Source of the DNA: Phoronis australis | Taxonomy: Eukaryota; Animalia; Phoronida | Length of the DNA: 57,635 bases | Reading direction: 5' to 3' | Assembly (NCBI GenBank): GCA_002633005.1 | Contig: NMRA01000079.1 | Coordinates: 680,859-738,493 of the forward strand | In this document: piece by piece, positions 4,501-49,444 of the stretch | Numbering within the stretch: position 1 is the stretch's first letter | How the letters are laid out: each line of letters starts with the position of its first letter | Position numbers and translations under genes: made by a program | The notes under the pieces: generated by a model | What the model was told of the DNA's origin: nothing | Database searches by the model: none | Seen by the model: the letters and a program-made list of their open reading frames with translations, nothing else

Positions 4501-5162
4501 GTTGTCCCTGCTTGGGTCATTTAGATACTTTAGATAATTTTATCTTTGTTTTCACTGGTTTGCATGAAGAACATGCAGTAAGTCCACTTGTTACATGGCA
4601 CACTTTGTGTTAAAATTGTGCCAACGGAAAGAGTATCAAAAGTGCCTTTGAAAACGCGAAAGACAAGTAAAGTCAAGGAAAGTGCAACAAATAACCATAT
4701 GGAAAAAGCGAAAACGGTTCATTGATGCTAAGTTCATTGCCAAAACAAGCCCTTTCCAGGTTCAGAGACTGGTTGCCTTTCTGGAAATGACTGAAACTAA
4801 ATCAAATGTACGTATACACAGTACATATTAATCTAATTACATATTAAAACAGTTTCATAGTTAGTTTTGTTGACCTAATAAAATTCCAATTGACCGCCAT
4901 GCTGTGTTAAACAGGTGAGGAATTATAGTTAGACGGATTATTTTCTGTTTTGTAGGAATTCAATGGCGATACTGAACGAGGAGGCAAGTACGAAACAGAG
5001 TTCAGTAAGTGTCTGATGACTCCACGTGCATATATCGAATCTGCCGGCGTGGCGTCAGTGGTCGCGTTCCTATGTAGTAAAGACGCCATGTACATCGATG
5101 GTGCTGACATACCTGTGGATTGTGGATATGCGGCAATGGGACCCGAAGGGCCCGGGCAGTAG
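1595..5162 (+). CDS. Classical short-chain dehydrogenase/reductase, copy 1 (286 aa); exons 1595-1737, 2073-2293, 3305-3403, 4010-4200, 4956-5162
   Basis: All introns GT-AG with compatible phases (861 nt). Contains TGGAQGIG, Asp after beta2 (IFD, NAD-type), VNVIG, catalytic GS and YSAAK, VRVNTVSPG and GADIPVDCGY. AATAAA at 5377-5382. Confidence 0.93.
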
Positions 5163-6471
5163 AAGGATGTGATTTGAAATAAGGTGGATATGACAGGCTG
5201 CCAGTTGCCAGTGTGACGTGGGCGCTGACACCAAGCAAATACGTTTTGCCTTAAATATAGCCAGCAAGACCTCGTGGGTGTTCATGAGCTGATGATTCGG
5301 ACGAGAACTGTTGGCATGGAAACGAGTGTAAAGATGTAATGAGGACAAGATCATGCCATATAAAAAATGTTGAGTGAATAAAATGCTATATTCGCTAAAG
5401 CTGATTATCAAGAAAAGTGGACTACGTTTCATATTACAATATAATGAAACTAAGCACGTATTTGCCGAGTAGACGAATTGGTTTTATGTACGTCAAATAA
5501 TCGGACAAGAGCATATTCCTAACAGATGAATCCCAATTTTTCCTACCAGCCTCATCCAATGTGACAAGCACGTCATAAACTGATTTTGGATTTCAATGTG
5601 CTGGCATTTTTTACAATTTAAACCAATATTTGATCAATTTAGCAAACAGCTTTACATAAATTGGAAAACTTCCCAGTTTTCCCAGGACAGCATCATTTGA
5701 ACAGTAGCTCCCAGCAGTTGCTTACAGAATTTCAATCGGGCGCGTTCGATACTAGAATAATTATTCTTTAAATCCCCGAATCTCACTGACATAGCTAATG
5801 ACACTGAGCATACGTTTAATAAAAAAAACTTAAGTGCAATTTTCTGTGAAAATCGTCCACATTTTAAGTGAAAACGTTTAATTTAAATAATTGCTTTCTG
5901 TGCCTGGTGAGACACAGTTTCCGTAGCTTGCGTCCAGACTAACTTAAGAGTATCAAATACCCACTGCACGTTTTTCTACGATGAGATAACATCAATTTTG
6001 TCATTTCCAAAATGCCAGTTTTCGTATTTTCTCAATGGTTCACGTTTTCTAAATATTCTAAGTATTCTGCGCAGGTGTTATTTCGCAATAAATGTGCAGC
6101 TTGCACCTGGTGCGAAAAATCATCACTTATAAATCAGAAACGATGAATTCTACCCAGCCATCAGTTCAAAACTACGTCCTAGTAGAAACTGTGGTGGTCT
6201 GGGGTGCAATAAAGACGACCAGGTTTGCAAAACATGGTGAGGGAGAGGGGGAGGAAAAGGAAGAGTTTGTCGATCCTATTGCCTACTATTCGTTGATTTA
6301 TTAGCCTGACCTAGTTTATGACTATTCAAAGCACTTACAGACAGATGTACACACAACACGAATACATTAATTAACGTTAATAATGTGGCGTGACTGTTCT
6401 CGCTAGGTCAGACAGTAGTGTCGCTCGAGAACTTCTGCCGATAAAAGGTCGTAGCCAACATTTCGTACTTG

Positions 6472-9400: not shown

Positions 9401-11211
9401 ACTACCTTTCTAAAACTAGACTACTCGTGAACTACATGTACAATTACATGTACCTACCTCTGCTAGAGAGGAGAGTTGGATTCGGGATGTTCGAATGAAT
9501 TCAGCGTCGATGGGCTTGTTGTGCGTGGCAAGAGTTATTGTAGAACTGACTTCCGCTCTTGACTGTGCCATTGTTAAGTTTGCAATTGGCGAATCTTGCA
9601 CTACTTGTATATTGAATTGGGAATTGAAATGAAATTCACCAATTAATTAGAACATTCTGTCGTAATGTTGTGATTGAGTCTTCTTCTCGGTCGTTTCGCA
9701 GATGGAGCCGAGTGTGCAGTGGTGAACATGGGCAGTGTCTACAATCACTGCGCGAGAATTAACATGTCCGGCTACAGCGCTGCTAAGGGGGCTGTCATGA
9801 TGCTGAGCAAATGTATGGCACTTGACCTGTCCTCACACGGAGTGAGGGTTAATACTGTGTCTCCAGGGGCGGTGTGGACGACATTTCGGGTAAGAACACT
9901 ACACAATTGGGAAATTGCATTATTCATAGACATCAGAATACATGAACCTAGGCAATAATGAATGCTGTGTGACTAAGAAGATTTGTAATTGAGACCCAAG
10001 TTTTAAAACCGAATGCAGCGCCATCCTTGAAAAAACGGTTGTTTTGGTATCTGTGTTTGAGAGAAAATCCTCCGTTATCGGTCCTAATTACCGTACACAT
10101 ACTTGAAACAAAAAGGATCTGCATCTGTCACTGTCATATTTTGGGGTCAGAAAATGAGCATGTTGACCTCTGTTAAAGTCAACGGAAGAGTTATCGAGGC
10201 ACTGTTAATTTGTCCCGGGTTGAAACTAGCAGCTTCGGCTTGATAGGCTTGCTCCAGTTTTGGAAATTTAAATGTTCTTATCTTTGTTTTCGCCTGCTCG
10301 CATCAAGAACACGGGGGTTAATCCTATCGGTAAAAATGTAGGTAACGGAAATAAGTGCATGTGATGAAAGTCTCTGTTCGTGTTCACAACCTGGTGCCAA
10401 TTGAAAAAGTATGAAAATGTCTATAAAAGTTTCAGTATTTGTCTTTGAAAATGCGAAAACAAAGTCGAATGGGCACATGGAAAGTGCGAATTGGTTTGGT
10501 AATGTTAACACAATTGTTCAAAGGCTGGTAATTTTGTTGGAAATATTAAAAATAGATCAAAAATGTACAATGTTAACTAATACCAGATGAAAACACACTT
10601 TAAGCTTCAGTTTTAAATGTACATGCATATGTAAATATTAAAGAAAACATTGAACACACATTGTTTGTGTTCCATAATTCCACACCGGTTGAGATTTGCA
10701 TATACACTTAGGCTCACGATTTTATGAGGGGATGCCCACTGCTAAGTCTGATTGGATGCTTGTGTTTGACCGGTAGTCCCGGTGGCTCAGCGGCTTAAGT
10801 GTCTACACGGATGGTAGAGGGTCCTGAGTTAGAGTCCTAGTCGGGGGCAGAATTCTTTTCGGACTTATGCTCATTAGGTCACGTGATGTGGCCATTAAGC
10901 GGAGTGCAGACCAGATTTGAAATGTTTGTAATCTTCAGTTTTGTTAAGAAATACACAAGAAATTTCTCGTGAATGCCATAGTACTGTATGTGCTAAACAA
11001 GCCAAGAGTTACTATAGGAAATTTTTTTCTTTTCTAGACGAACGACCCATTTTGCAAAAACCTTATGACTCCACGTGTGTTGATCAAAGCTGCTGGCGTT
11101 GCGTCAGTGATAACTTTCTTATGTAGTAAAGACGCCATGTACATCGATGGTGCTGACATCCCTGTGGATTGTGGATACACGGCGATGGGACCCGAAGGGC
11201 CCGGGCAGTAG
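6472..11211 (+). CDS. Classical SDR, copy 2 (275 aa); exons 6472-6617, 7126-7346, 8495-8593, 9702-9889, 11038-11211
   Basis: Same intron positions and phases, open frame (828 nt). Contains TGGARGIG and YSAAK. Last exon is 11 codons shorter than in the paralogs. AATAAA at 11707-11712. Confidence 0.9.
8627..9025 (-). repeat. Insertion in SDR2 intron 3, homologous to 40835-41225; decayed coding relic
   Basis: Starts where the intron diverges from SDR1 intron 3. Shares CGAATCTCACTGTATTT...ACAATGCCGCA and further blocks with 40835-41225. Minus-strand peptides are CGIVCKYSEIR and CGIVGKYSEIR. Confidence 0.65.
10776..10849 (+). pseudogene. tRNA-derived pseudogene or SINE head in SDR2 intron 4
   Basis: A-box TGGCTCAGCGG, degenerate B-box GAGTTAGAGTCC, anticodon stem TCTAC/GTAGA with a 7-nt loop. 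Acceptor and T stems are imperfect. Confidence 0.6.
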
Positions 11212-12970
11212 AAAGATGTGCTTCGAAATAAGATGGATGTAACGAGCCGCTAAGTGCCTGTGTGACGTGTTCAAACCAGGTCGCAAGCTGGTCGTATAGA
11301 GATCGGTACATTGGGGTATCCCATGTTCACTTTGTTTTTCTGTATTATCAAAGATAATGGCAACCATTTATCCGTAACTGGAGATGTGAGCCCAAGGTAC
11401 AATAGCCATGATACCCGTATTGTTACATGCATATCCAATAAAGATGAAACAAAGGAAAACAATGGTAGTGTCCCAGAGGCGACAACCAAACGACGCGCTT
11501 ACGCTGGTCATGGATGTCGCAAGTTAAACAATACCCTCCGACCTCCGTACGACTTCATATGGCATGACACCTAGCAAATACGTTTTGTCTTAAATCTCGC
11601 CAGAAAGACCTTGTGCATGTTCGTGTGCTGACGAGAATTGTGGACATGAAAACGAGTGTAAAGATGCAATCAGGACATGCACTTGCAATTTAAATATTAC
11701 GCTGTGAATAAAATGCTCTGTTTGTTCATAATCGATGAAAAAGGACTACGTTTGATTCTTAAGTGGCAATATAATTTAATTAGGCCAAGACGAGTGAACG
11801 CAAGAATAAAGAATATAACGTCACAAAGTATGTGAAATTGTCTTTACATATCGTTCAGGAAATTATGCAAACATAAACTAGGATTCCATTATCAGGAACA
11901 ACTCTGATATCTTCGCAGCCCCAAATTTTTCCTTGAAGATGAACGTTATCTGCTCGTTTGCAAATTTCAATTATACAGCAAGCTTTCACGCTGGAGAATG
12001 ATTGGTCGTATGACTGAAGGTCGCACGTGCGCAGATAAAGTTCACCTCCGAGGAGTCCCGGAAGGCTTCCGGCGTCTTATGGAATAACTTAGAAATTGCC
12101 GTAGCCTCAAGTTTCCAGTGGGAAGTGTGAGTTTGGTATTCTTAGCTGTGTCAGGTTCGAATTTCACTCAGTAATGTGAGCTTCGAAACAAAATAGACTA
12201 GTAGACTCCCCAAAGAATTGCGGGAATTTTGGCGAAAGTATTCGCCACAAAAATCCGCCCATGCGTTTTTTTTTTGACTCAACCCCCATGGGGGCGACAT
12301 TATATGTCTTGTGCGACAATATATGCCTTAAATGTCGCTAAGCATTGTCGTGCGGACGATAACAGGTGTCGAGTGCGACAATATATATCACGACATGACC
12401 TGTCACATTATAAACATGTAAGGGAAACACGCTCATGTCTGACCAGGATACCCGGCCAAACGCGCTTAAATATTAGAAAAATACACAAAAATTCCCGTCA
12501 CAGGAGTGGAGACTAAATGATGGAGCTGGGACAATTGTTTTGTATACCGGTTTGTACATACATGTATATGAAATTGCGGTTGTTTTATGATCGGACGAAC
12601 TATTTTGGTGTAGAATGAACACAGATATGGCTCCATTGAAGCAACGCTGGAGACCTACAGGTTTTTTCAGACACTTTGTAGCCTACGTACCCAGACAACA
12701 CGCCCCAACATGCAGGTGGCATGAACTCTATCTTCAGGCGGAGGAAACAAACTCTAATTACGGGTTGCATCCGTATCACGGCATCTAAACTCCAACCACA
12801 CTCGTCACCAATTATGTACGACACAGTTTCTAGTGTGCAAATCACAGTGTAACAGTACGGATCTCAGAACGGCACCCCGATACCTCTCAGGCCCCACGAC
12901 TACAACGACGCGTAGAATTATTACTTGTCATCGTGTTATTTGTCTTGATGTCTGTCATTTAAGTTAATTG

Positions 12971-13678: not shown

Positions 13679-14674
13679 ATGGAAGCTGCAAGGGAATATG
13701 ATGCTAAATTCAAACAACCCGACCTGGATGCGCCCTTAACCAAGGGACGATTTCAAGGGAAAGTTGTCGTAGTAACTGGAGGCGCCCAAGGCATTGGGCG
13801 AGCTGCTGTTGAACGGTTTTGGTAAGCGTCCAATGACAGTGCCTATGCTGCTAGGTGGGTCAGCAGATTTAGCAGGCAGTAGGCCTACATTGCTAGGTAG
13901 TAGTAGTAGGCCTAGTGTACAGTAGTAAAAATACTAACATTACTACAGTGCGTCATCGAGAGACATTAAAGGGATATATTTTTCTGAAAGTAGTGAAACC
14001 GTCGGAGCCCGGCATGTTTTTATATTTTAGGACACGTTCCGCCTCAAATATTGCTATGGGTCCATTAAGACTTTTGTTCGAGATATCCGTTAATATTTTA
14101 ATGCAAAGTTTTGATGCCAACAGGGCTTAATGATGGAAGTGCGATCTGTTTGCTGCGAAACTGTAATCGAAGCGAATACAAAATCACACCAAATCCCGGG
14201 CAAACAGGCTTAATTCATGCCATATAATAATTATTATCACAATTGTATTTTTTCACAATTTTCTAAATACATACAGACGATTTTTTCCGATTACCTAATA
14301 TTTCAAAAAGCGTATTACGCCTAACTCTATTCGCTTTATGGCACTGACATCTTTTTCAGCAACGATGGGGCATCGGTAGCAATATTCGACATCAACAAAG
14401 CTGAGGGCACAAGCCTGGAAACAAAAATGACTTCCCAAGGAATGAAAGCGAGGTTTTACGAAGTTGACGTGGCAGAGAAAGACCAGTGCGTGAAAGCGAT
14501 GACAAGAGTGGCAGACGACAATGGCGGGATGATCCATTTTATTGTGAGCTGTGCTGTGTATCCGGACAGTGCACATATACGTACGGTATACTTTTTATCT
14601 GTTTATTGCTCATTTAAAGGAGGGCAGTCTTAACAGTGTCAACGTAAAAATAATGATGACGATGACAATGATGG

Positions 14675-14706
<32 letters not shown>

Positions 14707-17700
14707 TTGATGATGATGATGATGATGATGATGATGTTGATGATGATGATGATGATGGTGATGATGGTGATGGTGATGGTGATGGTAATGGTGATGGTGA
14801 TTATGATGATGATGATGATGATGATTTATTAGAATCACACAAGGAGTACAGAGATAAAAAACAGTAACATGAAAGCACAAGACAAAAAATAGAAGTACAA
14901 GTGGAAGATATGGAAAACAAAAAGTCAAAGACTTATTTCCATTATGGTCAGTAAAAAAGGACGACAAACAAAATGAAAACCGATGAAAGACAAAAGAAAA
15001 TCAGGAGTACATAAGTAAATCAGTTACTAAATAGGTAAATAAATATAGACATAAATACATAAACACACGCGCGGGTGCACCCAAGGGGGGAGGGGCTCGG
15101 GGGGCTCGAATTAGAATTTAAGCGTAATAGCTTTCACTGATGCAGCATTTGTGTGGTGAATAGCGGAATCCTCTCTCGTCGTACTGTACGTGCAAGTAAC
15201 GTTTGAAACAAATAAGAGTCACAGAATACAACCGAGACGTAAAAAATATCAGAAAGACATTGCTAATGTCTTCTTGGTAGCATTCACATGTAATTAAACT
15301 GCACACCATAGCGAATGATATGGAATCAAATGTTGCAGTTTCTTGTGTTTTTTCTCTTTTGAATTTTTTTTTTTTACTTTTTACATGTATATTAACGGAC
15401 CTCCTCTCCTAATGCAATGGAAGTTGTAATTTGACTAATGTTATCAATATTTACAGGCAAATTGCGTAAACGGTATTTGTCTTTCCAGCTTGCTTTGAAT
15501 TGTCAACGGAAATGTTCAAGAAAGTATTGGACGTTAACGTTATTGGAGTGTTCAACGTGGTACAAGCCGGGTTTCCTTTTATGAAAGGTATATTTTCAAT
15601 GCCTGCACTTCGTCAACTGCTGTGTCAATGAGCTTATACATGTAAGCCGCTACATCAGTATCTCGTTTTGCAGCTTGGCACTGAGCCAACTGAGGTTGTC
15701 AAGTCCTTTCAAAAGAGTTACAAGCGCATCTATATTTAATTCATTCACCATGGACTACTTCAAACATTGCGCTTTTGTCAAAGACGATGTATCCCAGGAG
15801 TAATTTGCATATCTTGCAATTTTCCGAATATACATCCCAGCGTCTGAGCACTTGAAACTCGAAGTTGTAACACCAAATGAACGCACATAGGCATGGGCGT
15901 TTCATTGAGTGGGCCTTTTTGCGAAAATTCCCATTATACAGTAGAAGACGGCATTGGTGCTTATTTCGGTTAAGAAGACTGTCATTGCTGAGGTTGGAAC
16001 CAGGGATCATTAGGAGGCAGTCACCTTGCCAATGTGTGTGCCTCCCCCGGGTTGATTCCTTGAATAGGCCTAACTTGCTACGGTATATCCTGAGACGGAC
16101 TCGCTACCAAACCACAGCACCCGCCTCAACGGTCCATACTAGGGCCAAACAATTCTTCGGAAAAGGAATTGATCGTTTCTTAAAATAAACACATTACGCG
16201 TACACTGTACACTAAATGATTATTGCGCAACATAACTTTATTATAAAACAGTCAAATTCAACTTACAAACATGTGGAGTGTAATAGCATGACAAAGCATG
16301 ACAGAGGAGGTAAAAACGTTGCACGTCGATTCATATCAGGGTTGCGGTACCACAGTATAATCCCTAATCAAATCAAAACATATTTTAGAGTAAAATAAGA
16401 GTCGACGGATGCGCGCGCACAATTGACTTGCCGATGAGTTACGAAGAGTTGAAATGCGTTGCTTTTCGTGATTACAGTAAATCACAATGCAAAGAAATTA
16501 TATTTTCAGGGTGAATCTCCGATCATTTTTTCGAGGTGGTTTACTTGAGGTTTACCCACGCTGGCGGTGCCGTTTTCATTTTGCTGGAGAGGTTTTGGAT
16601 TTTTAATTTTTATTTTTTGATCCTGTCCCAAAGGGGGGTTTAAACCCTCTCAACCCACGGTAAATCCGCCACTTTCAGGGGTGGGAGAACTTGCGTTTAA
16701 AGGTACGTACGTTCTAGATAACGGTGTAATTCAGATCCGACCTCTGATATAAAGCGGTTGGCAAACGTTCTCGTGTGTGGTTGTTTCAGACGGCAGACCA
16801 GGCATCCAATCTGGTTTCTGTTATGTTCATTTTTTCGACACAAGTAGTTAGCCTTAGGTTGAGTGACAATCATTTACAACTCTTTTCGTAGACAAAAGTG
16901 AGTGTGCTGTGGTGAGTGTCGGCAGTGTCCGCGGCCATTGTGCTGCTCTTCACCAGGCCGGTTATAGCGCTGGTAAAGGAGCCCTATTGATGCTAACAAA
17001 ATGCATGGCACTGGACTTGTCCTCTCACGGAGTGCGGGTCAACAGTGTGTCACCAGGGGCAGTGTGGACACCGAGTCAGGTGAGATGTTGGTAGGTACAT
17101 GGACGTTAATGACTGGTGTGAAGGCAAAATTAGATAGTTAAAAACTAGATACGATAAAATGCAGTTACCTCTTTAGACCATGCAGCATCTGTTCAGCAAC
17201 GCGTGTTGTAAGCTTACATGTATTTTTGGCGCTCTCAAGTAGTCCTGTAGCCTCTTTCCAAAGCACTCAACTGGTACACAAACGGAATACATGTGGTCAA
17301 ACTCATGTATGTAATCGTTTGAGAAAGACCCTCTATCACGGTCTTTCTGAGAATGACATCACAAAAAGGGAAATGTGCCGGGCTGCGTTCCATAAATCAA
17401 CTGTCTTGCGAGAAAATTAAGAACCCGAAAGACCTCGCAAAATCACGATAGTGAAAGGCAATTGTTTCGCGAGTATGCTCGAGACCTAGCAAAATGGGAG
17501 CCTCTGAAGAGATTGGTTGGTGAGGATGTAATGTTGAATTATGGGATAGAATTCATGGATTATGACTCATATTACGTCATGAATGTTGGGGGGGAAAATA
17601 AACTATTTCCATTGCATATAGTCTTGCCGCAAATGCAGAAATTTGAGCCTACGGAACGCAGTTCTGTACCACTTAAGCATTTTCTTTGGACGTTTATATG

Positions 17701-18418
17701 TACTGTATCTCTTAGCGAAGGCACTAATTCCAAAAGTGGCTTTAAATCTGCTTTCCGTCGACGAAAATAACTTCGATTTAACCGTATCTCTGTAAGATTA
17801 GTCTGAACTTGTTCCTTACGCGGGTGAGAAGTGATTTTAGTAATTTGCAAACAACTGACAGTTGGTTGATGCTCTAGACCACGCTCAGCAATGAACTTGC
17901 TGTGACATTTTCACGAAAAATGTCGCTCTAGTCGGCTGGCAAAACGCTGGTGTTGGTTACGTAGTAAAATGCCGCTGCGACATAAACTCAGTTGCATCAA
18001 AAAATGAAGATGTGATAGTTCGTTCCAAGTCCAGAAATCACATGTACTTTGAATGGGGAACAATTTGAGATCAATTGAACTACGGTAAGGGATAAAATTC
18101 AAAAGCTGTTTTTTGTATGGCTTTGAGCAGTAACAGATAAGAAAGCGTGCTTTGGGCAAGAGTTCCACACAAACTTACTACCCTTTTAACGAAGGCTGAT
18201 TTCTTTTATAGGTGATAAATGGAAAACTTCAACGCGGCAGTGAGTACGAGAAGGAGTTTGGCAATTGTCTCATGACGCCACGTGCATTTATAGAGAGCGC
18301 CGGCGTGGCGTCTGTGATTGCGTTCCTGTGCAGTAAGGACGCCATGTACATTGACGGCGCTGACATTCCTGTAGATTGTGGATACATTGCAATGGGTCCA
18401 GAGGGACCTGGTTACTAA
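13679..18418 (+). CDS. Classical SDR, copy 3 (285 aa); exons 13679-13821, 14360-14580, 15489-15587, 16892-17079, 18212-18418
   Basis: Same exon structure, open frame (858 nt). Contains TGGAQGIG, YSAGK and VRVNSVSPG. AATAAA at 18599-18604. Confidence 0.93.
14652..14826. repeat. (ATG)n/(ATGGTG)n microsatellite in SDR3 intron 2
   Basis: Directly visible trinucleotide run of about 175 bp. Confidence 0.97.
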
Positions 18419-19590: not shown

Positions 19591-19671
19591 ACAATATTTT
19601 GTAGTAAACAAATTACATCATCACTGTACTTAACGCAGGGGTCATGCCAATCAAACAGAATAACAAAACAA

Positions 19672-22177
19672 AACTAGAAAGATTATTGTCACGGCGTGAC
19701 AATAACGGACTCTGCGCGTGCGTATTACTGGAATTATGGGAAGTTACTGACAGCAACCCGTTTACCAATATGAAAAGGAATTCTTTAAAATTGTAGGAGA
19801 AATTACATATTAATTTTTTGATGACCTTTCCACTAACTGACCTCTTCCGGTGCATTATGAGCCCCGATGAGGAAGTAATTGTCAACTCGATTAAAAGTGT
19901 GGTTAATGCTAATAATCACAGATGTTTTACTTTATGCACTTCAGAATACAAGATGTATGAAGTGGTCAAACTTTCAGAAGAAAAATGAACCTAATGACCT
20001 CATGGGTGCACCAAATGACCTGAAAATTTAGAATTCAACTTCAATCGCACTAAGTAAACAGATACGTAATTCTGAAGTGTCTAGCTCAAAATTTTAGTTT
20101 GCACTCAATGACCTTTGACCTATTTTTTCTGATTGGCTAGGCCTATTGCGAAGTAAAGTAGGGTATCCACTTGGCATTGTTGACTTACACCAGTGTGCTG
20201 AAATTGAAAAGAATTCCTTGAAAAACGTAAGAGATATAACATTTTGAACGTTACATGACCTTTGCACTAATTGACCTTATCCGGTGCATTTTAAGCATCT
20301 TTAGGAGAATTATTGCAAACCCCATGGAAAATGTGTTTAACGCTGAGAATCACAGTTGTCTAACGGTTGACACATCAGAATACTTGCTGATTGAAAAGGT
20401 CAAATTTTCAGAAGAAAAATGCACCTAATGACCCCATGTTTGCACTAAATGACCTGAAACTTTGGATTCCGATTTGATTTACCTGTGGCAATCAGACCTG
20501 TCAATTTGAAGTGTCTAGCTCAAAATTTTAGTTTGCATCTAATGACCTTTGACCTATTTCACCTGATTGGATGACCCGATTACTTAGAAAAGCAATTTTT
20601 TAAATTGTCATGTTGACTTATACCTGTGCACCGAATTTGAAAAAGATAGCTTTAAAACTGAAGGAGGAGTAGCATTTTGAAAATTATATGACCTTTGCAC
20701 CAAACGACCTCTTCCGGTGCAATATGGAATATGATTATATAACCAATCAAAATTTATATACTGTCAAAAGTCATATGCTGAATTTAAAGACCGTACCTGC
20801 ACCCAATTTGGAGTTATTAAGCCTCAAAGTTGGTCGGAAGAAGAATAAGAAGAACTAGAAAGATTATTGTCACGGCGTGACAATAACGGACTCTGCGCGT
20901 GCGTATTACTGGAAATATTATGGGAAGTTACTGCCAGCAACCCGTTTGCCAATATGAAAAGGAATTCTTTAAAATTGTAGGATGAATTACATATTAGTCT
21001 TTTGATGACCTTTCTACTAATTGACCTCTTCCGGTGCATTATGAGCCCCCATGAGGGAGTAATTGTTAACTCGATTAAAAGTGTGGTTAATGCAACTAAT
21101 CACAGATGTTTTACTTTAAGCACTTCAGAATACAAGATGAATGAAGTCGTCAAATTTTCAGAAGAAAAATGCACCTAATGACCCCATGGGTACACTAAAT
21201 GACCTGAAAATTTAGAATTCAAACTCAATCGCACTTAGTAAACAGATACGTAATTCTGAAGTCTCTAGCTCAAATTTTTAGTTTGCACTCAATGACCTTT
21301 GACCTATTTTTTCTGATTAGTTAGGCTTATTGCGAAGTTAAGTACGGTATTCACTTGACATGTTGACTTACACCAGTGTGCTGAATTTGAAAAGAATTCC
21401 TTGAAAAACGTAAGAGATATAACATTTTGAACGTTACATGACCTTTGCACTAATTGACCTTATCCGGTGCATTTTAAGCATCTTTAGGAGAATTATTGCA
21501 AACCCCATGGAAAATGTGTTTAACGCTGAGAATCACAGTTGTCTAACAGTTGACACATCACAATACTCGCTGATTGAAAAGGTCAAATTTTCAGAAGAAA
21601 AACGCACCTAATGACCCCATGTTAGCACTAAATGACCTGAAACTTTGGATTGGGATTTGATTTACCTGTGGCAATCAGACCTGTCAATTTGAAGTGTCTA
21701 GCTCAAAATTTTAGTTTGCACTTAATGACCTTTGACCTATTTCACCTGATTGGATAACCCGATTACTTAGAAAAGTAATTTTTTTAATTGTCATGTTGAC
21801 ATATACCTGTGCACCGAATTTGAAAAAAGTAGCTTTAAAACTGAAGGAGGAGTAGCATTTTGAAAATTATATGACATTTGCACCAAACGACCTCTTCCGG
21901 TGCAATATGGAATATGATTATATAACCAATCAAAATTTATATACTGTCAAAAGTTATATGCTGAATTTGAAGACCGTACCTGCACCCATTTTGGAGTTAT
22001 TAAGTGTCAAAGTTGGTCGGAAGAAGAATAAGAAGAATAAGAATAAGAATAAAATTGAAGAAAACCCAGGAACAACAGTACTCTGCGCTTACACGCGCAG
22101 AGTAAAGAATAAGAATAAGAATAAAATTGAAGAAAACCCAGGAACAACAGTACTCTGCGCTTACACGCGCAGAGTAA
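19672..22177 (-). mobile_element. Non-autonomous Helentron-type element (HINE family 1, copy A; 19672-20852 + 22106-22177)
   Basis: On the minus strand: 5' subTIR/IR hairpin ACTCTGCGC..GCGCAGAGT, (ATTCTT)n microsatellite, internal ~435-bp subrepeats, 3' subTIR, stem-loop TTATTGTCACG/CGTGACAATAA, CTAG-TT end. No TSD. Confidence 0.8.
20853..22105 (-). mobile_element. HINE family 1, copy B, nested in the microsatellite of copy A
   Basis: Complete second copy beginning AACTAGAAAGATTATTGTCACG. The remainder of copy A's microsatellite and its terminus follow it. Confidence 0.8.
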
Positions 22178-24728: not shown

Positions 24729-25485
24729 GGCAGTGTTTCAGACCTCCGACAAACGAAAACACCAAGAACACAACGAAGCCCCGTGTGTATCAAATGATCA
24801 ACTCCAAATCTTTCAATACCGTACTAAAGGCTGGGTATCAACCAGATAACGGCACTGGGATTTGATTACCAAAATATTATTTAGACATTGGCCTGCTTTC
24901 GGGGGCCCGCCAAGTTACACTTGCTCACTCGCTGGATGGACACCAAGTGGCCATAGACTTTAGACAGTGAAGGTCTTTCCCGGCTTCACATTTCGTTACG
25001 ATAATTTTTCTATATAATGTGCTTTCATGGCTCGAAATTGTGCCTAGAAAATAGCACAAAATCTTGCCCATAACGGCGGTCAAATGGAGAAACAACGGGT
25101 AGTTCCGTCTAAACAGTCAGGCAACGCTCACCGGATGGTACCATAAGTGCTAAGTCAATGGTTGCAGAATTCCTTTGCAAGCGTAAGCCTATGCTATAGC
25201 AACAGATTATCTACGTTCTGTACTTGACCATGCTTCAGTGGAGCCACATTGAGTATCAAAATTGGTCTTGGGACCCAAATTAAAAGTTGCACTCAGCAAC
25301 TGATGGCGACACCAAGTCTTTGAGAGCATTCGTATATTTCAGTATCACGAGGCACGGCAAGCTTCATTCACAGATGTTTGATCGAACCACGAACTCCCTG
25401 AGACTCATAAGTTATTGTTCGGACATACATGTATGTCCCAATTGCACTATAAATACTTCAACTTCGGATAAAATTGCAAAAAAGG

Positions 25486-26732
25486 AACTAGAAAGATTAT
25501 TGTCACGGCGTGACAATAACGGACTCTGCGCGTGCGTATTACTGGAATTATTATGGGAAGTTACTGACAGCAACCCGTTTACCAATATGAAAGGAATTCT
25601 TTAAAATTGTAGGAGAAATTACATATTAATTTTTTGATGACCTTTCCACTAATTGACCTCTTCCGGTGCATTATGAGCCCCAATGAGGGAGTAATTGTTA
25701 ACTCTATTAAAAGTGTGGTTAATGCTTATAATCACAGATGTTTTACTTTAAGCACTTCAGAATACAAGATGAATGAAGTGGTCAAACTTTCAGAAGAAAA
25801 ATGCGCCTAATGACCCCATTGGTGCACCAAATGACCTGGAAATTTAGAATTCATACTCAATCGCACTTAGTAAACAGATACGTAGTTCTAAAGTTTCTAG
25901 CTCAAAATTTTAGTTTGCTCTCAATGACCTTTGACCTATTTTTTCTGATTGGTTAGGCCTATTGCGAAGTAAAGTAGGGTATTTAACTGGCATGTTGACT
26001 TACAAATGTACACCAGTGTGCTGCAATTGAAAAGAATTCCTTGAAAAACGTAAGAGATATAACATTTTGAACGTTACATGACCTTTGCACTAATTGACCT
26101 TATCCGGTGCATTTTAAGCATCTTTAGGAGAATTATTGAAAAGCCCATGGAAAATGTGTTTAACGCTGAGAATCACAGTCGTCTAACGGTTGACACATCA
26201 GAATACTTGCTGATTGAAAAGGTTAAATTTTCAGAAGAAAAATGCACCTAATGACCCCATGTTTGCACTAAATGACCTGAAACTTTGGATTCCGATTTGA
26301 TTTACCTGTGGCAATCAGACCTGTCAATTTGAAGTGTCTAGCTCAAAATTTTAGTTTGCATCTAATGACCTTTGACCTTTTTCACCTGATTGGATGACCC
26401 GATTACTTAGAAAAATAATTTTCTAAATTGTCATGTTGACTTATACCTGTGCACCGAATTTGAAAAAGTTAGCTTTAAAATTGAAGGAGTGCATTTTGAA
26501 AATTATATGACCTTTGCACCAAACGACCTCTTCTGGTGCAATATGGAATATGATTATATAACCAATCAAAATTTATATACTGTCAAAAGTCATATGCTGA
26601 ATTTAAAGACCGTACCTGCACCCAATTTGGAGTTATTAAGCCTCAAAGTTGATCGGAAGAAGAATAAGAATAAGAATAAAATTGAAGAAAACCCAGGAAC
26701 AACAGTACTCTGCGCTTACACGCGGAGAGTAA
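25486..26732 (-). mobile_element. HINE family 1, copy C (full length, about 1.25 kb)
   Basis: Highly similar to copies A and B end to end, with the same termini. Confidence 0.85.
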
Positions 26733-29362: not shown

Positions 29363-30847
29363 TTACCTCGGGCGTTCGGGACATCCCAGGCCGGGGTGAT
29401 CCCTTTGTATTCCGCAATATCTGCACATGTGCCTGTATTTGCATTTAGTTTGGTCACAAGGCAGCCTTTTATTGAACTTTATACAAAAACCCCAGTTCGT
29501 GTAAATATGTTTTTCCTGTCCTAGTCTTAGACATGACTTGCCGGCGTGTTCACGTCCGCAATGCTGACACACGTGTCTGTAATTGCAACCTTCCCTTCCA
29601 CACCTTTTTGTGTCGTTGTACTCCAAACAGATCCCTAAATATCTCCTTGGCGGTTCTTCATTTCTCACCTCCCTATCTGGACATGTACCCGTTCTTTTCT
29701 CTCTTATACAGAATGGCCCATGATCGACATTGGAACAAGTTGGCCTGTTGTACGGCACAAATATAGATACATTAACATAAGCGTCTTCATTTCCTATTCT
29801 GACGGCTGCATCACTTGGTTTCTTTTTCCCCTCAAAGGCTCCATCAGGCTCCTTATGAGCGTAAAGGATTACATTAGTCTCATTCTTGTACTCGACAATC
29901 TCGCCTTGTCGAAGTCCAGTTACACCCATTTTAGAGAGCGTGGTTTCAAACCTGCGTGACCCATAGACACTACTCCCATTGCAAAGGCCAAACCATACTC
30001 CTGGGATAATGTTCTTGTTGTCACTAGGCTTGAATGTTCTATCATTCTGTATCTGCTTAGCCTCATTCTGGTGAGTAACATGGTATATTGGGGTATCACG
30101 AGCAATTTCTATATCTTCAAGTTGTTCTGCCCGATAGCTGCTCAATAATTTCTTTGTACCATAATTGTCAATAAATAGTGGTACTTCCAGAAACTTGAAT
30201 ATTTTCAGAGCTTCTAACACACTTTGAATGGGATTTTTTAGAGCGTCGCTTTCGACATAGCGACACAGCGATTCGTTGCGCCAATTTCTGAGAAACTCTC
30301 GGAAAAGGTCACCGTAATCCGAAAGAAAGTCTTTTACGTCGTCATCATGATCCTTAATGGAGAGAAGTGCTTCCAGTGCCAGAACAGTAATTAGCGGATC
30401 TTCCTCGCCAGCCGCTACAAGTCTTCCAGACAGAACAATTTTATCTTCATCGCTAGCAAAATATATCGATAAGTCGTCGCTGGTTAAACGGACTAGTCTC
30501 AGAACTCTTTCTAGTTCGTCAGCCAATTCGTCAGGCCTGGGTTCACCTGCTTCAGCCCTGGGTTCATGTGGTTCAGCCCTGGGTTCGTCTTCTTCACGCC
30601 TGGGTTCACCTGCTTCAGCCCCCATGGGTTCCTGCTGACGTGGATTGTCAGGGAAAATTCGTCTCACGATGTCATCAATTCGGTTAGGAACCGCGTCAAG
30701 ATTTCCAACCTGAATGCAATAAATCCCCTCAAGGGCAAGCCGGACGGCGATTGTTCGAGGGGCACGTCGCACGGCTGCTTCAAAATCGTTGAAAAACTGA
30801 TCAAAGCTGACTTCATTAAAGGCCAAAAAAATATCCAGTCTCGCCAT
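29363..30847 (-). CDS. Intronless 494-aa protein: duplicated helical module, E/P/R linker, putative ADP-ribosyltransferase-like fold, and 2x (CCCH + CCHC) zinc fingers
   Basis: By far the longest ORF in the window; context GATCATGG. Central YHVTH...A..I...FKPS...GVWF...YG pattern. Zinc fingers C407-x8-C-x4-C-x3-H425 + C427-x2-C-x3-H-x4-C439, repeated at 455-489. Confidence 0.85.
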   Translation of the reverse strand: MARLDIFLAFNEVSFDQFFNDFEAAVRRAPRTIAVRLALEGIYCIQVGNLDAVPNRIDDIVRRIFPDNPRQQEPMGAEAGEPRREEDEPRAEPHEPRAEAGEPRPDELADELERVLRLVRLTSDDLSIYFASDEDKIVLSGRLVAAGEEDPLITVLALEALLSIKDHDDDVKDFLSDYGDLFREFLRNWRNESLCRYVESDALKNPIQSVLEALKIFKFLEVPLFIDNYGTKKLLSSYRAEQLEDIEIARDTPIYHVTHQNEAKQIQNDRTFKPSDNKNIIPGVWFGLCNGSSVYGSRRFETTLSKMGVTGLRQGEIVEYKNETNVILYAHKEPDGAFEGKKKPSDAAVRIGNEDAYVNVSIFVPYNRPTCSNVDHGPFCIREKRTGTCPDREVRNEEPPRRYLGICLEYNDTKRCGREGCNYRHVCQHCGREHAGKSCLRLGQEKHIYTNWGFCIKFNKRLPCDQTKCKYRHMCRYCGIQRDHPGLGCPERPR

Positions 30848-30887: not shown

Positions 30888-33143
30888 CAACGCCAGAAAT
30901 TTGTAACATTCTTGATCCGCTAGGTGACGCTTAGCGCCATGTCCCTAACCAATCATAACAACGCATAGTTAGGTTAAAGGTCAGGAAGCTTGGGCGCCAG
31001 TACCGTGAGCCTGCATGAAGTCAGTAGTCTGCAGAGCATAGTCAAGTTTACAACGAGAGCGCTCGGAAGAGCGACACTTGGCGGAATTAATCGAAAAGAC
31101 GACAATGAGAGCGACGACAACAATCATGACGATCTAGGCGGCAAATATGAATAAAACGATAACATTCATGTGACTAGCGTAGAAATCAAATAGAGAGCAT
31201 ACAATCAACTACAATAAAGAACGAAAGCCCGTTCAAAACTCTATCTAAAGTGGTAGTTTTGCAAACACGATAACATTCATGTGACTAGCGAAGAAATCAA
31301 ATAGAGAGCATACAATCAACTACAATAAAGAACAATAGATGGCGCAACATGACGGTCCAGTCTGCAGTAGGACAGTGCTGGCTGGGTCAGTCTGGGTCAA
31401 CTAGGCATAACCAAAACAAAGTGGGCTGAAAGCCAGCCAGCTGCGTGTGACCAAAGGCACAACGGTATCCGAAAATCTCGAATAATTCAAAAAGTAGTCG
31501 TCGTAGCGCAAAATGGAAAATATCTCCTGAAAGCCCGTTCAAAACTCTATTTAAAGTGGTAGTTTGGCAAAAATCCAAAAATTTTTCGAGAAAATTGAAA
31601 ATTCGCCGTTTTTTTTGGAATTCAAAGTCAAATAACTCGAAAACGGTAAGTCTGAGAAATACGCTCTCGCAAACTTTTTGAAAGGCCATACTTCAAGGAA
31701 TCCACATGCAAAAATTCACGTCATTTGCTCTTCCCATAAAAAATGCGACACCAGAGCGATTGAAACCGTGTGAACATGCCCCACAGCCGCCATCTTGAAG
31801 GTAACTTCCGGTTCAATAATTTTTTATAAAAGCTTATTAAACTCAACAAACACGTGACCAGTTTGAAAGTGATTGGTTTGCAATTGCGCCCTCTACAGGA
31901 GAAAACGTTTTGAGCCATATTTCGGGGTGCGCATGCGCCACGTCCAATATTTCCGCTATCTTTAACCGGAAGTGAACGATTTTCTGCACAATTGTAGCAC
32001 ATGCGTTGTAGTATATTCGTACCGATTTTCAGCTATGTAGGTCGAAAAATGCGGCCTCTACGAGTATTTGACCGTGAAATCGGATACAAAATGGCCGCCA
32101 TGTCCGCCATTTTGTATCCGATCATAACCAAAAACAATAGCGTTCTAGCAATTCCCGATCTACACGCTGTGTGCAAATTTCGTAAAAATCGGACAAAAAT
32201 TGCGACCTGTAGAGTGCGAACAAACAAAAAAAAACTTGCTGTCAGACCAACATACTTGACGGAATTCGAAGAATTCCGCCAAGTAATAACAGTATTTGGA
32301 ATTTCTGGAATTCCACAGTCTACAGTACGACAGTGCTAGCTGGGTCATTGGGGGTCACAACTCACTGGTAACTTGTACACATAACCAAAACAAAAGTGAA
32401 CTGAATGCCAGGCAGCCGCGTGTGCTTGCATTGGCTTAAGCGGGCTGCCAAAGCGCTTTTTATTAATCTTCAGATGTTTGCCAATACAAATTTGTGTTCG
32501 GAATCCACTCCTAAGTAACAGTATTGAATTAAAACGAATGACAACGTACTGTGGATCACAAAAAACGGAACAACATTTTGAAGATAACTATAGTATCAAC
32601 TACTGATCACAGCACGAAATCTGGAATAAAACTGTATAAAATCCGACTTTTTTTAAACTTCGAATGTATTTTTAAACTCATACCGGATGAAAAAATGAAC
32701 ATAACAGTTTCTTACCGATTCTGAGCTAGTCTTTCATCTACTGAGTGCAAATTTCAATGCAAGACAACCAGGCGATCGGCAATATTTCATCTCACAGCAC
32801 TGTACGTGACAAATCCGATGGCAAAATGAATTCAGCCACAAACTTGACTTCAAAATGAGCTGTGCGCTCAAATATTAGCTTCCGGACGATCGTTAGCATA
32901 TGCCTCAACGGGGCAAACTTCAAACTTCAAGAGACGTGGAAAAATTTTCACCAATGACGCTGATATTTGGCAGTAACACGTCTTAACATACACTCTATGC
33001 CACAGGCTATCGGCAAATTGTGTAGTTATCTCCCCTCACTTGTAAATTGCTGATTATAGCCTGTTATTGTGTATTTCTTATGGAGGGCTGCTGGCAAGAT
33101 TTAGCGCATGCGTAGTAGTGCATGTTACAAATTTCTGGCGTTG
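30888..33143. mobile_element. Non-autonomous DNA element with perfect 22-bp TIRs (about 1.0 kb without the HINE insert)
   Basis: CAACGCCAGAAATTTGTAACAT (30888-30909) and its exact reverse complement (33122-33143). Second copy at 533-946. No convincing TSD; superfamily undetermined. Confidence 0.75.
31054..32284 (-). mobile_element. HINE/Helentron-type element, family 2
   Basis: Absent from the homologous empty site at 771-780, and inserted at an AA/TT. SubTIR ACTTGGCGGAATT at both ends, terminal hairpin ACTTGACGGAATTC..GAATTCCGCCAAGT, and stem-loop CGCTC/GAGCG. Confidence 0.8.
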
Positions 33144-43193: not shown

Positions 43194-45771
43194 TTTTGTT
43201 TGCTCTCCCACCTGCCCCCTTCTCACCGAAAGCAAACCTGCCGGCTAAGCCTACTAGAAGCCAGACGTAGTTGGAGCACACCGATTAATCCAAACACTTA
43301 AATTGAATTTATAAAAATTCTACCTGTTAAATTGCTCACGTGGTTACCCGAACCGAGAAAATGCCAAGGCCTTGAAAATGTGATAATACTGAGCATTTCT
43401 ATTCCAATCCTATTTGTGAGTCCAAATGACGTCATATCAGTAGCAGATAAGTCATCCCTAAACGTTCGAATATCAGGGCCTTCAAGTATTAGTAGTAACA
43501 ATTATCAGTTTGAATACACAAGTTTACGCATACAAATGAACAAGAATTTCAATGATATATACAAGATTCTAAATGTAAACGAAGATACATGTATGACTTT
43601 TAATATTGATGTACAATACTTGTGTACAATGTCTTGTATATAAAGGTTTATGATTAATACATGTTATACCGATGTGGGGTACATAAAAACAAGATATGAT
43701 TGAGATAAGTTGATGCCGTCAATTTCAGGTGGAACAACAAATCTTACTGAATTGAACATTCTTCATCAAGACTTATTGTGACTACTGGTAAAAAGCGGCC
43801 ATTAAGCAAACAGCTAATTTTCTAGTAAACATTTAACTAAGATTTTTGAGTAAGCAATGTTAATATCGGAGTATTGTTTGTGTGCGTGGGAAACCTCTGA
43901 ACTCTGGTCTTTGTTTACTGTGCAATCAAAGAAATACGTGGGAATGTCTGGAAGGCTACACAGCGACGCAGTGTTGAAGTGTCTCTGAAAGTTGAAATGT
44001 CGCCAGTTATGTAGAACCACATTGACACGTATTTAGCCAAATGAATTCGAAACTAAAGATTTCAACTCAGTAAAATTCTTTTCTGAAAGGAGGAAGTCTG
44101 TAAAATTTGATTTTTGACCTTATACCAACCTGCCATTAATTGGGCGGTGTGACCGTGTGCTTTATTAAAATTTAGAGAAAAAAGTATATTCATAGGACAA
44201 TAGGGGTCAGTCAAGAACATGAATAAAATCTCAAAAACGACGTTACATTTTTCTAAAGAATCCTTTCGTTTCACTTCACGAAAACTTTTATTTTATTTCT
44301 TAAAATCATAAAGGTCGTATTGATATAGTCCCCCGGTAGATTCTCTTGTCGATCCAGTCAAACAGGATTTTATTGAAAAGTTGTTGACGTTGTTTTAAGA
44401 CTACAAAAGTATGTAAATTGACACATGCAGTTTACGAGGAATATCTAATTGTGTTAGATCCTATGAATGCTCCCGTCATGGGTAAAACTGCTTGGTATAA
44501 TCTGACCAATAGTAAACCTGTTCGCCGATTGGTATGTGATAATATCACGGTAGATGTGGGAGCATAAAAGATCACGGAAAAAGTTTCAAGATTGCACGGA
44601 ATTGAGATGACCAGAATTTTTGAGTTGATTAATTAATTCATTTACCTTTTTCAAGAACGCGTTCGCAACATTGATATTCGACTTAGCCGTGGTGAAAGTT
44701 TATATACTGAAATATACAGCTTCGCGCCGATGGTGGGTAAAAATAGCCAAATAAAATCAGACACAAAATTATTGTCATTAAAAATAAAGATTTTCCTTGG
44801 GCAAACTAAAATATTTGCCGATGTTAGAAAAATTGGCGTTCTACCGACATTCTGCTGGTAAAGTTTTAGACCGAACCGGATCCCATGCGTAACAGGCGGA
44901 TTTCGGAGCGATGAAATATATTGTAGCGTCACCTATTGGCCAGTTTATATACCTGATGTTGTGCTCCAACTTGGAATAGAAATCTATTCCAAGTTGACGC
45001 AAGTGATCTTGAGATTAAGCAAGCACTTGCGACATCTAGTGTGCAACTGTTAACTAAAGTTTCGAATGGTCGGTGGACACGAATTCGTTTGTCGTGAGTT
45101 ATTGTTTCTGTTTCAATTATTTTTTTGCCAATTCTGTATGTTATTCTGGTCTTGGTCAATTGTTTCCAAAGGTGATTTGACTGGGATGGTTGGGTTTGTG
45201 ACCGAGGGGCTGAAATGACTGGCAACCTGGGACTTTTGCAATGAAAAGGATTAAGAATAATTAAGAGCTAAGATGTACCGTACCGAGAGGGGTTTTGCAT
45301 TGAACAGTTTGTCATGCCCCGTTGTACCTGCCACCTCACCCCCCGTTTATACACCAGTGCTTGGAGCTCGCTATTTGGTGGAAGTGTTTTCATTTATATC
45401 TCACAATGACATCGCCAATCGCTGCCAGCATGGCCTAAGCATTGATCTGTAATTTTTTCTTAAAATCTTATCTGATTAAGGAAGAAGTTCAGATAACGCT
45501 TGTTGAGTAAAAGTGTTATTTTTGGCAAATACTCATTTCATTTTGAAACGTGCAATTTAATGAATATTAGTTTTTCATTGGTTTGCTGTGTGATGTCATC
45601 AGGTCTATATAGTGATGACAATATGCCAAAAGTTACAGAAAACAACTCTGAAGTTCTGTTGACAGGTTTTGAATGTTCTCATGATAAAGATCATTAGACT
45701 TTTCTGGCCTACGATATTTTTGCCTTTCTCTGTTCAGTACAGACCCACATAACATTACGCCAATGTATGTA
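43194..45771 (+). repeat. Copy 1 of a 2.6-kb near-tandem duplication
   Basis: Collinear and highly similar to 46208-49444, apart from small indels and a MITE. Confidence 0.92.
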
Positions 45772-46207: not shown

Positions 46208-49200
46208 TTTTGTTTGCTCCCCCACCCACCCCCTTCTCACCGAAAGCAAACCTGCCTAAGCCTACTATAAGCCAGACGTAGTCGGAGCACACCGATTAAT
46301 CCAAACACTTAAATTGAATTTATAAAAATTTCACCTGCTAAATTGCCCACGTGGTTACTCGAACCGAGAAAATGCCAAGGAGGCACAGAACAGTTCTCAC
46401 TGGGTTTTGCCTAGCAAAACACGCATCACTTGATTTGTAACCTTTTCTTCACTCTGTCAAAAACAGGATGCAAAGAATGGCATGTTTTCAATTATTTCAC
46501 ATAAAAAGCCCAGCAGATGAGCACAGAAACTTTATTCTTTCTTGTATTTTTGACCATTTCATTGCCACTGAAAACCAAGCTAGACTAAGAAAAATAAGGG
46601 CAAAACAAAATGCAAAATCGGCACTTTTCACCCGAAAAACACCACTTCCCTGCCGAGACACGACTAAAACCAACATTAGAGTCTGAAAGCAAATTTCCTA
46701 CCGATTCCGAAAATGTGGTCCAAAAGTACTGTCAACCAACTAGTATTTTGGCAATTCTTGCTTGTTTGAGGGCTACCTAAAATCACAGCCAATTTCTCGG
46801 TCGCTACCCAACAATGCACAATTGCAGCCGGGGGCCGCCATCTTCAAGAATAGTGCAGCTACAGCCAAGAAAGTGGCCTTTTTTATTCACAGCATGTTCA
46901 CAAATACAAACAAACCACATTCACCGAGCCTACGTGCAATGCCCACCTACAAAATGTCCCCAAACTTGGCCTACCCCAAAATTTCTATATTTTGGCAGTG
47001 CAAATTGGCCGCGGCCGTAGCCTAACTATTCAGTGCCACCCAAGGCCTTGAAAATTGATAAGGCTGTCCATTTCTATTCCAGTCTTATTTGTGAGTCCAA
47101 ATGACGTCGTATCAGTAGCAGATAAGTCATCCCTAAACGTTCGAATAGCAGGGCCTTCAAGTATTAGTAGAAACATTTATCAGTTTGAATACACAAGTTT
47201 ACACATACAAATGAACAAGAATTTCAATGATATATACAAGGTTCAAAATGTAAAAGTAGATACCTATATGACTTTTAATATTGATGTACAATACTTGTGT
47301 ACAATGTCTTGTATATAAAGATTTATGATTAATACATGTTATACACCGATGTGGGGTACATAAAAACAAGATATGATTGAGGAAAGTTCATGCCGTCAAT
47401 TTCAGGTGGAACAACAAATCTTACTGAATTGAACATTCTTCATCAAGACTTATTGTCACTATTGGTAAAAAGCGGCCATTAAGCAAACAGCTAGTTTTCT
47501 AGAAAACATTTAACTAAGATTTTTGAGTAAGCAATGTTAATATCGGAGTATTGTTTGTGTGCGTAGGAAACCTCTGAACTCTGGTCTTTGTTTACTGTGC
47601 AATCAAAGAAATACGTGGGAATGTCTGGAAGGCTCCACAGCGACGCAGTGTTGAAGTGTCTCTGAAAGTTGGAATGGCGCCAGTTATGTAGAACCACATT
47701 GACACGTATTTAGCCAAATGAATTCGAAACTAAAGATTTCAACTCAGTAAAACTCTTTTCTGAAAGGAGGAAGTCTGTAAAATTTGATTTTTGACCTTAT
47801 ACCAACCTGCCATTAATTGGGCGATGTGACCCTGTGCTTTATTAAAATTTAGAGAAAAAGTATATTCATAGGACAATAGGGGTCAGTCAAGAACATGAAT
47901 AAAAACTCAAAAACGACGTTACATTTTTCTGAAGAATCCTTTCGTTTCACTTCACGAAAATTTTGATTTTATTTCTTAAAATCATAAAGGTCGTATTGAT
48001 ATAGTCCCCCGGTAGATTCTCTTCATTGTCGATCCAGTCAAACAGGATTTTATTGAAAAGTTGTTGACGTTGTTTTAAGACTACAAAAGTATGTGAATTG
48101 ACACATGCAGTTTACGAGGAATATCTAAATTTGTTAGATCCTATGAATGCTCCCGTCATGGGTAAAACTGCTTGGTATAATCTGACTAATAGTAAACCTG
48201 TTCGCCGATTGGTATGACGTGATAATATCACGGTAGATGTGAGAGCATAAAAGATCACGAAAAAAGTTTCAAGATTGCACGGAATTGAGATGACCAGAAT
48301 TTTTGAGTTGATTAATTAATTTCTTTACCTTTTGAACGCGTTCGCAACATTGATATTCGACTTAGCCGTGGTGAAAGTTTTATATACTGAAATATACAGC
48401 TTCGCGCCGATGGTGGGTAAAAATAGCCAAATAAAATCAGACACAAAATTAGTGTCATTAAAATAAAGATTTTCCTTGGGCAAACAAAAATATTTGCCGA
48501 TGTTAGAAAAATTGGCGTTCTACCGACATTCTGCTGGTAAAGTTTTAGACCCAACCGGATCCCATGCGTAACAGGCGGATTTCGGAGCGATGAAATATAT
48601 TGTAGCGTCACCTATTGGCCAGTTTATATACCTGATGTTGTGCTCCAACTTGGAATCGTGATAGATTTCTATTCCAAGTTGACGCAAGTGATCTTGAGAT
48701 GAAGCAAGCACTTGCGACATCTAGTGTGCAACTGTTAACTAAAGTTTCGATTGGTGGACACGAATTCGTTTGTCGTAAGTTATTGTTTCTGTTTTAATTA
48801 TTTTTATCGCCCATTCTGTATGTTATTCTGGTCTTGGTCAATTGTTTCCAAAGGTGGATTGACTGGGATGGTTGGGTTTGTGACCGAGGGGCTGAAATGT
48901 CTGGCAACCTGGGACTTCTGCAATGAAAAGGATTAAGAATAATTAAGAGCTAGGATGTACCGTACCGAGAGGGGTTTTGCATTGAACAGTTTGTCATGCC
49001 CCGTTGTACATGCCACCTCACCCCCCGTTTACACGCCAGTGCTTGGAGCTCACAATTTGGTGGAAGTGTTTTCATTTACATCTCACAATGACATCGCCAA
49101 TCGCTGCCAGCATGGCCTACTGAGCAGGGATCTGTAAAATTTTTCTTAAAATCTTATCTGATTAAGGAAGAAGTTCAGATAACGCTTGTTGAGTAAAAGT

Positions 49201-49444
49201 GTTATTTTTGGCAAATACTCATTTCATTTTTAAACGTGCAATTTAATGAATATTAGTTTTTCATTGATTTGCTGTGTGATGTCATCAGGTCTACACAATA
49301 TGCCAAAAGTTACAGAAAACAACTCCGAAGTTCTGTTGACAGGTTTTGAATGTTCTCATGAAGATCAATAGACTTTTCTGGCTACGATATTTTTGCCTTT
49401 CTCTGTTCAGTACAGACCCACATAACATTACGCCAATGTATGTA
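46208..49444 (+). repeat. Copy 2 of the duplication, starting immediately after the N at 46207
   Basis: As for copy 1; the start coincides with the only ambiguous base in the window. Confidence 0.92.
46379..47040. mobile_element. 662-bp MITE, PIF/Harbinger-like
   Basis: Absent from copy 1 (empty site AATGCCAAGGCCTTG). Imperfect 17-bp TIR GGAGGCACAGAACAGTT / AACTATTCAGTGCCACC and 3-bp TSD CAA. Confidence 0.85.

Follow-up and report, generated by a model that had tools for sequence, protein, structure and literature searches.

We analyzed a 57,635-nt stretch of the Phoronis australis genome (GCA_002633005.1, contig NMRA01000079.1, positions 680,859 to 738,493; hereafter the window) and find that it carries an intact single-exon gene, whose product belongs to a protein family of corals and a sea anemone with a predicted H-type ADP-ribosyltransferase (ART) fold. 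Alone among the family proteins retrieved, the product of this gene ends in two CCCH-CCHC zinc-finger units. We give an even chance to the reading that the gene is an intact member of an anthozoan family of H-type ARTs whose fingers stem from the Gag protein of a Ngaro-type retrotransposon and tether the enzyme to RNA. We therefore describe two things: a new, divergent branch of the ART superfamily, which is the firm finding, and a one-off fusion, known from one gene that is hardly expressed.

The gene is an uninterrupted ATG-to-TAA open reading frame (ORF) of 494 codons on the minus strand (window 30847->29363). The original prediction, made from the sequence alone, had described an intact single-exon ORF of this length in repeat-rich DNA without stating the strand; this is borne out, and the motifs that it quoted (PIYHVTHQNEAKQIQNDRTFKPS, PGVWFG, SVYG and VNVSIF) occur in the translation exactly as given. 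Given the stop-triplet frequency of the window, a stop-free run this long would be expected about 7e-9 times. The plus strand over 29363-30847 contains many stops, and no other ATG-initiated ORF in the window exceeds 136 amino acids. Dispersed and tandem repeats surround the ORF on both flanks. One dispersed repeat of ~415 nt lies upstream of both the ORF and the first of three dehydrogenase genes; its ORF-side copy is interrupted by ~1.2 kb of different repeats, its left copy (532-946) ends beside a GTAAGT donor-like site, and it could be the source of a promoter or 5' exon. A tblastn match at window 5422-5514 was rejected as chance because the matched stretch contains stops.

We retrieved 86 homologs by protein search (E 1.7e-104 to 1.8e-35, 39-52% identity), mostly 270-340 amino acids long, which align with residues ~120-390 of the phoronid protein only. 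Organism names are attached to eleven of the 86, in each case a stony coral (Porites, Oculina, Stylophora, Montipora and Acropora); the anemone Exaiptasia diaphana contributes one further family member. The phoronid protein scores 299 bits against a profile of the ~280-residue family core that was built without it, and a 73-row profile searched against 1.84 billion representatives returned 46 clusters, every one of the same family, with no distant bridge to other families. The exact phoronid protein is absent from a 15-billion-sequence collection. Prokaryotic genomes yielded 37 pattern matches and viral contigs 107, none of them a relative, and a viral match, L008, was rejected as an out-of-frame chance match. 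Neither the phoronid protein nor any of 94 family rows has a Pfam annotation at threshold, searches of the PDB by sequence and by profile gave chance matches only (E at least 0.14), and PADLOC profiles gave no match. In the literature searched, which covered few subscription papers, six family accessions appear in no paper and topic searches found no description of the family.

In seven metagenome loci the core lies in a single reading frame with no introns; therefore, the single-exon structure, which the original prediction had noted, is common to the family. Six of these loci stop soon after the last conserved Cys, and the seventh (L004) extends ~40 residues with no fingers. By eye, an ORF 0.5 kb downstream of the family gene at another locus (L005:1442-1945) reads like a helix-turn-helix/integrase-type transposon protein. 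The family rearranges often: P0002 and P0003 have tandem double cores, the N-terminal helices are apparently doubled in P0080 and P0097, and Acropora members have helical repeat tails; P0055/P0056/P0058/P0076 and P0082 are also among the rearranged proteins. A search for longer forms (567-2000 aa), which counts as weak evidence, recovered just four isoforms from a single Acropora digitifera locus, and their tails are not fingers. One close pair, L002:744-1586 and L003:274-1257, has a nonsynonymous divergence (dN) of 0.121 and a synonymous divergence (dS) of 0.108, values that hint at diversifying or relaxed selection.

The C-terminal half of the family very probably adopts an H-type ART fold. 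In predicted structures, a six-strand split beta-sheet core superposes on known ARTs, in agreement with the original prediction, and the nearest matches are Tpt1/KptA, tied with diphtheria-like domains, which act on proteins; Foldseek searches against the PDB and viral models gave none at E<=0.001. We read residue conservation from a 94-row family alignment, in which denominators are the rows aligned at each column. PMC7955679 defines the H-Y-[EDQ] clade as follows: strand 1 carries Hx[ST], strand 2 carries a Tyr, a second Tyr takes part in stacking, and strand 5 has x-x-E at its front, where PARPs have YxEY[VI][VI][FY]. The first of these features is present in the family (H256 and T258, each in 91/91 rows), so the His singled out in the original prediction is conserved; the strand-2 Tyr is replaced by Trp in 90 of 91 rows, again as predicted. 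Other conserved positions are Q314 (93/94), N325 (92/92) and Y329 (93/93). The prediction had taken VNVSIF for the catalytic last strand and found no Glu there. VNVSIF is instead the sixth strand; in both models the fifth opens with E323 or its equivalent, and E316 lies in the fourth, so the Glu had been sought one strand too late. The resulting signature would be H-W-(Y)-E, with E316 as the alternative Glu. PARP (PF00644) was matched in Pfam by 0 of 94 members and not by the phoronid protein (E<=0.1).

We lean toward the family being catalytically active, with NAD+ (nicotinamide adenine dinucleotide) as its likely substrate. In the mechanism we propose, H256, W285 and Y295 would hold NAD+, E323 (or E316) would stabilize the oxocarbenium, and a single ADP-ribose would be passed to a bound protein or to nucleic acid, with NAD+ hydrolysis as the alternative outcome. 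The family would then most likely be made up of mono-ARTs or NADases, each with a regulatory domain of helices, kept as many fast-diverging single-exon paralogs. The helical domain (aa 124-222), to which we assign this putative regulatory role, stays unplaced because the matches of a wide VIA search with a two-domain model were filled by generic helical repeats. Conserved His, Cys and Arg residues at the end of the core (H376/C380/R385/C389) may form a metal site. Near the N-terminus (aa 4-47) lies a weak second copy of the family helices, for which a direct self-alignment was not significant.

Both units of the tail read C-x8-C-x4-C-x3-H-x-C-x2-C-x3/5-H-x4-C, and the two predicted C-terminal CCCH+CCHC units are thus present. 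Shuffling the tail produced one such unit in 2 of 100,000 trials and two units in none of 100,000. Neither the unit nor a published Gag pattern of tyrosine-recombinase (YR) elements occurs in any of 181 fetched family proteins, whose tail past the last conserved Cys has a median of 7 aa (159 measurable proteins). The combination of an ART-like domain with such fingers is therefore found in this protein only and is not supported as a system. Tandems of CCCH followed by CCHC are typical of the ends of Ngaro-type Gag proteins. Supplement 4 of PMC4157794 tabulates the Gag finger patterns of YR retrotransposons; the CCHC of unit 1 is an exact Ngaro pattern, C-x2-C-x3-H-x4-C (1 of 10 Ngaro patterns matches, once), and the CCCH halves differ from tabulated forms by one residue. 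No zinc-finger passage for YR elements was found in PMC3783388. The fingers fit the Ngaro patterns better than the CCCH-WWE-PARP arrangement, so the ZAP-like layout first suggested is not supported. ESM rows at 0.88-0.91 are unnamed fungal and mollusc clusters, plus one with 10% zf-CCCH. The fingers were likely captured from a Ngaro-like Gag and would tether the enzyme to RNA.

The dN/dS comparison put forward in the original prediction points to constraint on the ART part. Against the seven loci, the proportions of nonsynonymous (pN) and synonymous (pS) differences are 0.25-0.38 and 0.70-0.83, therefore indicating long-term purifying selection, a measure blind to recent decay; synonymous sites are saturated against all seven and the ART part is still conserved. 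All candidate catalytic residues and 16/16 finger ligands are retained. Between finger units 1 and 2, dN is 0.53 and dS 1.27 over 35 codons, although the two may have arrived ready-made from a donor.

Several observations weigh against a working, Gag-derived fusion. Any Ngaro pattern turns up in 5% of shuffles, no homolog of the finger tail was retrieved, including in a search against longer proteins, and 111 nearby stop-free segments (at least 55-75 aa, 21.8-57 kb) contain no Pfam match to a Gag body, reverse transcriptase (RT), RNase H or recombinase, a screen that short decayed remnants would escape. For these reasons the Ngaro capture is likely and not demonstrated. The protein has also lost a ~12-residue segment after strand 6 that is present in nearly all rows (alignment columns 600-615 are filled in 88-93 of 94 rows, with F in 87/93, and all 16 are empty only here), and it keeps 63 of 71 conserved columns, the 7th lowest of 89. 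Lastly, expression is only a trace. In four RNA runs (X1-X4; about one fifth of each raw run was read), the ORF is covered in 0 of 13 bins in X1, X2 and X4 and in 2 of 13 in X3, at depths of 1.7 and 0.7, and no read crosses the ART-finger junction. The first dehydrogenase gene, used as a control, is spliced in all four runs. X3 is near the window haplotype (157 reads at >=99%, versus 15 each in X1 and X2), and its few ORF reads are sense because the first mates are antisense to the RNA. X1 and X2 match the window less closely, so their blanks may mean that the gene has diverged or is missing there. That runs X1-X3 share a species label and differ so strongly in likeness to window 1500-12000 points to high polymorphism or cryptic lineages. 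On balance, we are evenly divided on whether this copy is a working gene with working fingers.

The foremost alternative, which we consider rather unlikely, is that the ART family is real and this copy arose recently as a chimera under relaxed selection: after duplication it would have shed a helix and its stop codon and been read into a retrotransposon Gag fragment, and it would have no selected function. The singleton fusion, the 12-residue deletion, the long branch (in a quick fallback tree that leaves the protein unplaced and carries a long-branch warning), the near silence in three raw-read runs where the neighboring dehydrogenase gene is spliced and expressed, and the repeats adjoining the start all fit such an origin. 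It accounts less well for 494 stop-free codons, for intact candidate active-site residues and finger ligands, for an ART part conserved across saturated synonymous sites, and for the lack of a Gag, RT or recombinase remnant beside the fingers. Alternatively, the ART fold could be a non-catalytic NAD- or nucleic-acid-binding module like the pseudo-PARPs PARP13 or TASOR, to which the fingers add RNA binding. Trp in place of the strand-2 Tyr, low Z scores and root-mean-square deviations of 3-5 A to all active enzymes, and PARP13, TASOR and RCD1 among the structural matches would be expected of a pseudo-enzyme; H256, T258, K278, N279, S293, Q314, E316 and N325, invariant across 94 divergent rows, and the conserved E323 look like an active site, and we consider this reading quite improbable. 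Very improbable is a third possibility, that the gene is selfish mobile-element cargo whose fingers help to package or copy its own RNA. A single-exon family in repeat-rich DNA, Gag-like fingers, the transposon-like ORF at L005 and the precedent of AACRNL, a transposon-linked ART of fish (PMC12957317), speak for it. Against it, the gene lacks terminal repeats and a target-site duplication, the 111 segments contain no transposase, RT or recombinase, the window holds one copy with no second, and other family members have no fingers. Slimmer still is the chance that a small split beta-sheet resembles ARTs by coincidence and that the family is another enzyme or a metal-binding protein.

We compared the proposed ART with known systems. 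Tpt1/KptA/TRPT1 are RNA 2'-phosphotransferases of the H-H-h ART clade that act on nucleic acid (PMC8120803). In contrast to these, the family carries Trp in place of the strand-2 His and Glu where strand 5 of that clade is hydrophobic, has no PTS_2-RNA Pfam match, and is narrowly anthozoan with many paralogs. Unlike the H-Y-E enzymes (PARP, diphtheria-toxin-like, DarT), it is H-W-E with an additional invariant Q-G-E in strand 4 and a C-terminal His/Cys motif, and has no sequence-level similarity to them and no toxin delivery domains. Its H-x-T-H motif is reminiscent of DarT; no DarT profile or PADLOC match was found for the phoronid protein or the family. ZAP/PARP13, PARP12 and PARP7 likewise join a CCCH-type finger and an ART-fold domain in one chain, a functional analogy only. 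These proteins consist of CCCH, tandem WWE and PARP domains, and cnidarians have separate genes of this kind (PMC11784840). We rejected a relationship to ZAP/PARP12, given no WWE or PARP Pfam match and a reverse order, with C-terminal fingers that include CCHC knuckles and a fusion seen once. The likeness to Ngaro Gag is confined to the finger patterns given above; unlike Ngaro/DIRS, no RT-RNase H or tyrosine recombinase ORF lies in the nearby segments. AACRNL (ART-associated Crinkler-like protein, of fish and other free-living eukaryotes) is likewise a non-PARP ART-like gene tied to genome conflict, from which the phoronid gene would be set apart by having no detected Crinkler domain or flanking hAT element.

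The many fast-diverging paralogs and the similar dN and dS of L002/L003 (one pair) suggest conflict or immunity, and we tentatively propose an immune or anti-transposon role, which we consider somewhat less likely than not. The family would then serve in defence as an effector that evolves fast and is expressed conditionally, with the fingers steering the phoronid copy to retroelement or viral RNA. It is unlikely that the whole of a bolder reading holds, in which an expanded anthozoan H-W-E ART family outside the named ARTs acts in innate immunity on nucleic acids and one copy, led by its captured Gag fingers to retroelement or viral RNA, ADP-ribosylates that RNA or proteins attached to it and has thus independently reinvented ZAP/PARP12. 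Animals are not known to have many ART lineages other than PARPs, ecto-ARTs and TRPT1. This set would grow by one with a multi-copy ART-like family of reef-building corals and an anemone that lacks annotation and is missed by Pfam and hidden Markov model searches; its H-W-E pocket would be unusual, its catalytic residues are testable, and its natural members of ~280 aa are easy to express. A role in defence, if real, would make the family relevant to coral immunity, and the finger-fused copy would be a transposon RNA-binding module redirected to aim a host enzyme.

Table 1. Features of the finger-fused ART-like gene and its surroundings (window coordinates)
Feature	Position	Strand	Basis
Single-exon ORF, 494 aa (P0001)	29363..30847	-	ORF reading
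Zinc-finger unit 2 (CCCH + CCHC), C455-C489	29381..29485	-	pattern and shuffles
Zinc-finger unit 1 (CCCH + CCHC), C407-C439	29531..29629	-	pattern and shuffles; CCHC half fits Ngaro Gag pattern
ART-like domain, aa 223-392; six core strands, aa 253-258, 283-287, 298-303, 311-319, 323-331, 357-364	29672..30181	-	predicted models
H376, C380, R385, C389, conserved, end of family core	29681..29722	-	91/92, 92/93, 93/93, 91/91 rows
Site of ~12-residue deletion after strand 6 relative to family (F-L-P...F..V helix)	29746..29747	-	alignment
E323, front of strand 5, candidate catalytic Glu	29879..29881	-	89/94 rows; first strand residue in both models
E316 in Q-G-E, strand 4, invariant	29900..29902	-	94/94 rows
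S293-V-Y295 (-G296), candidate second nicotinamide-stacking aromatic	29963..29971	-	S 91/92, Y 88/94, G 94/94
W285 in G-x-W-F, strand 2; putative position of Tyr of H-Y-E enzymes	29993..29995	-	90/91 rows
Strand-1 H-x-T motif, H256-V-T258-H259	30071..30082	-	H 91/91, T 91/91, second H 90/91 rows
Family helical domain, aa 124-222, predicted helical bundle	30182..30478	-	
21-nt tandem repeat, 4.3 copies, encoding acidic/Pro linker	30531..30621	-	
Degenerate, weak second copy of family N-terminal helices, aa 4-47	30707..30838	-	profile without query, E 0.002 in one-sequence search; weak BLAST second segments
Dispersed repeat, ending ~40 nt upstream of ATG; resumes 32285-32533; uninterrupted inverted copy 532-946	30888..31053	.	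RNA reads from other copies pile up here
Three tandem intron-containing short-chain dehydrogenase genes	~1595-5160, ~6475-11200, ~13680-18410	+	GT-AG joints for first two; adh_short on two exons of first

The only other recognized coding material in the window is the tandem trio of spliced short-chain dehydrogenase genes at ~1.6-18.5 kb. Three ~1.2-kb copies with 93-95% identity and ~434-nt sub-repeats, without a Pfam match, lie at 19657-22105 and 25485-26732, and a 2.4-kb direct duplication (95% identity; 43364-45771 and 47040-49444) contains no recognized gene. One of the introns of the third dehydrogenase gene contains a long (GAT/GGT)n microsatellite (~14645-14830).
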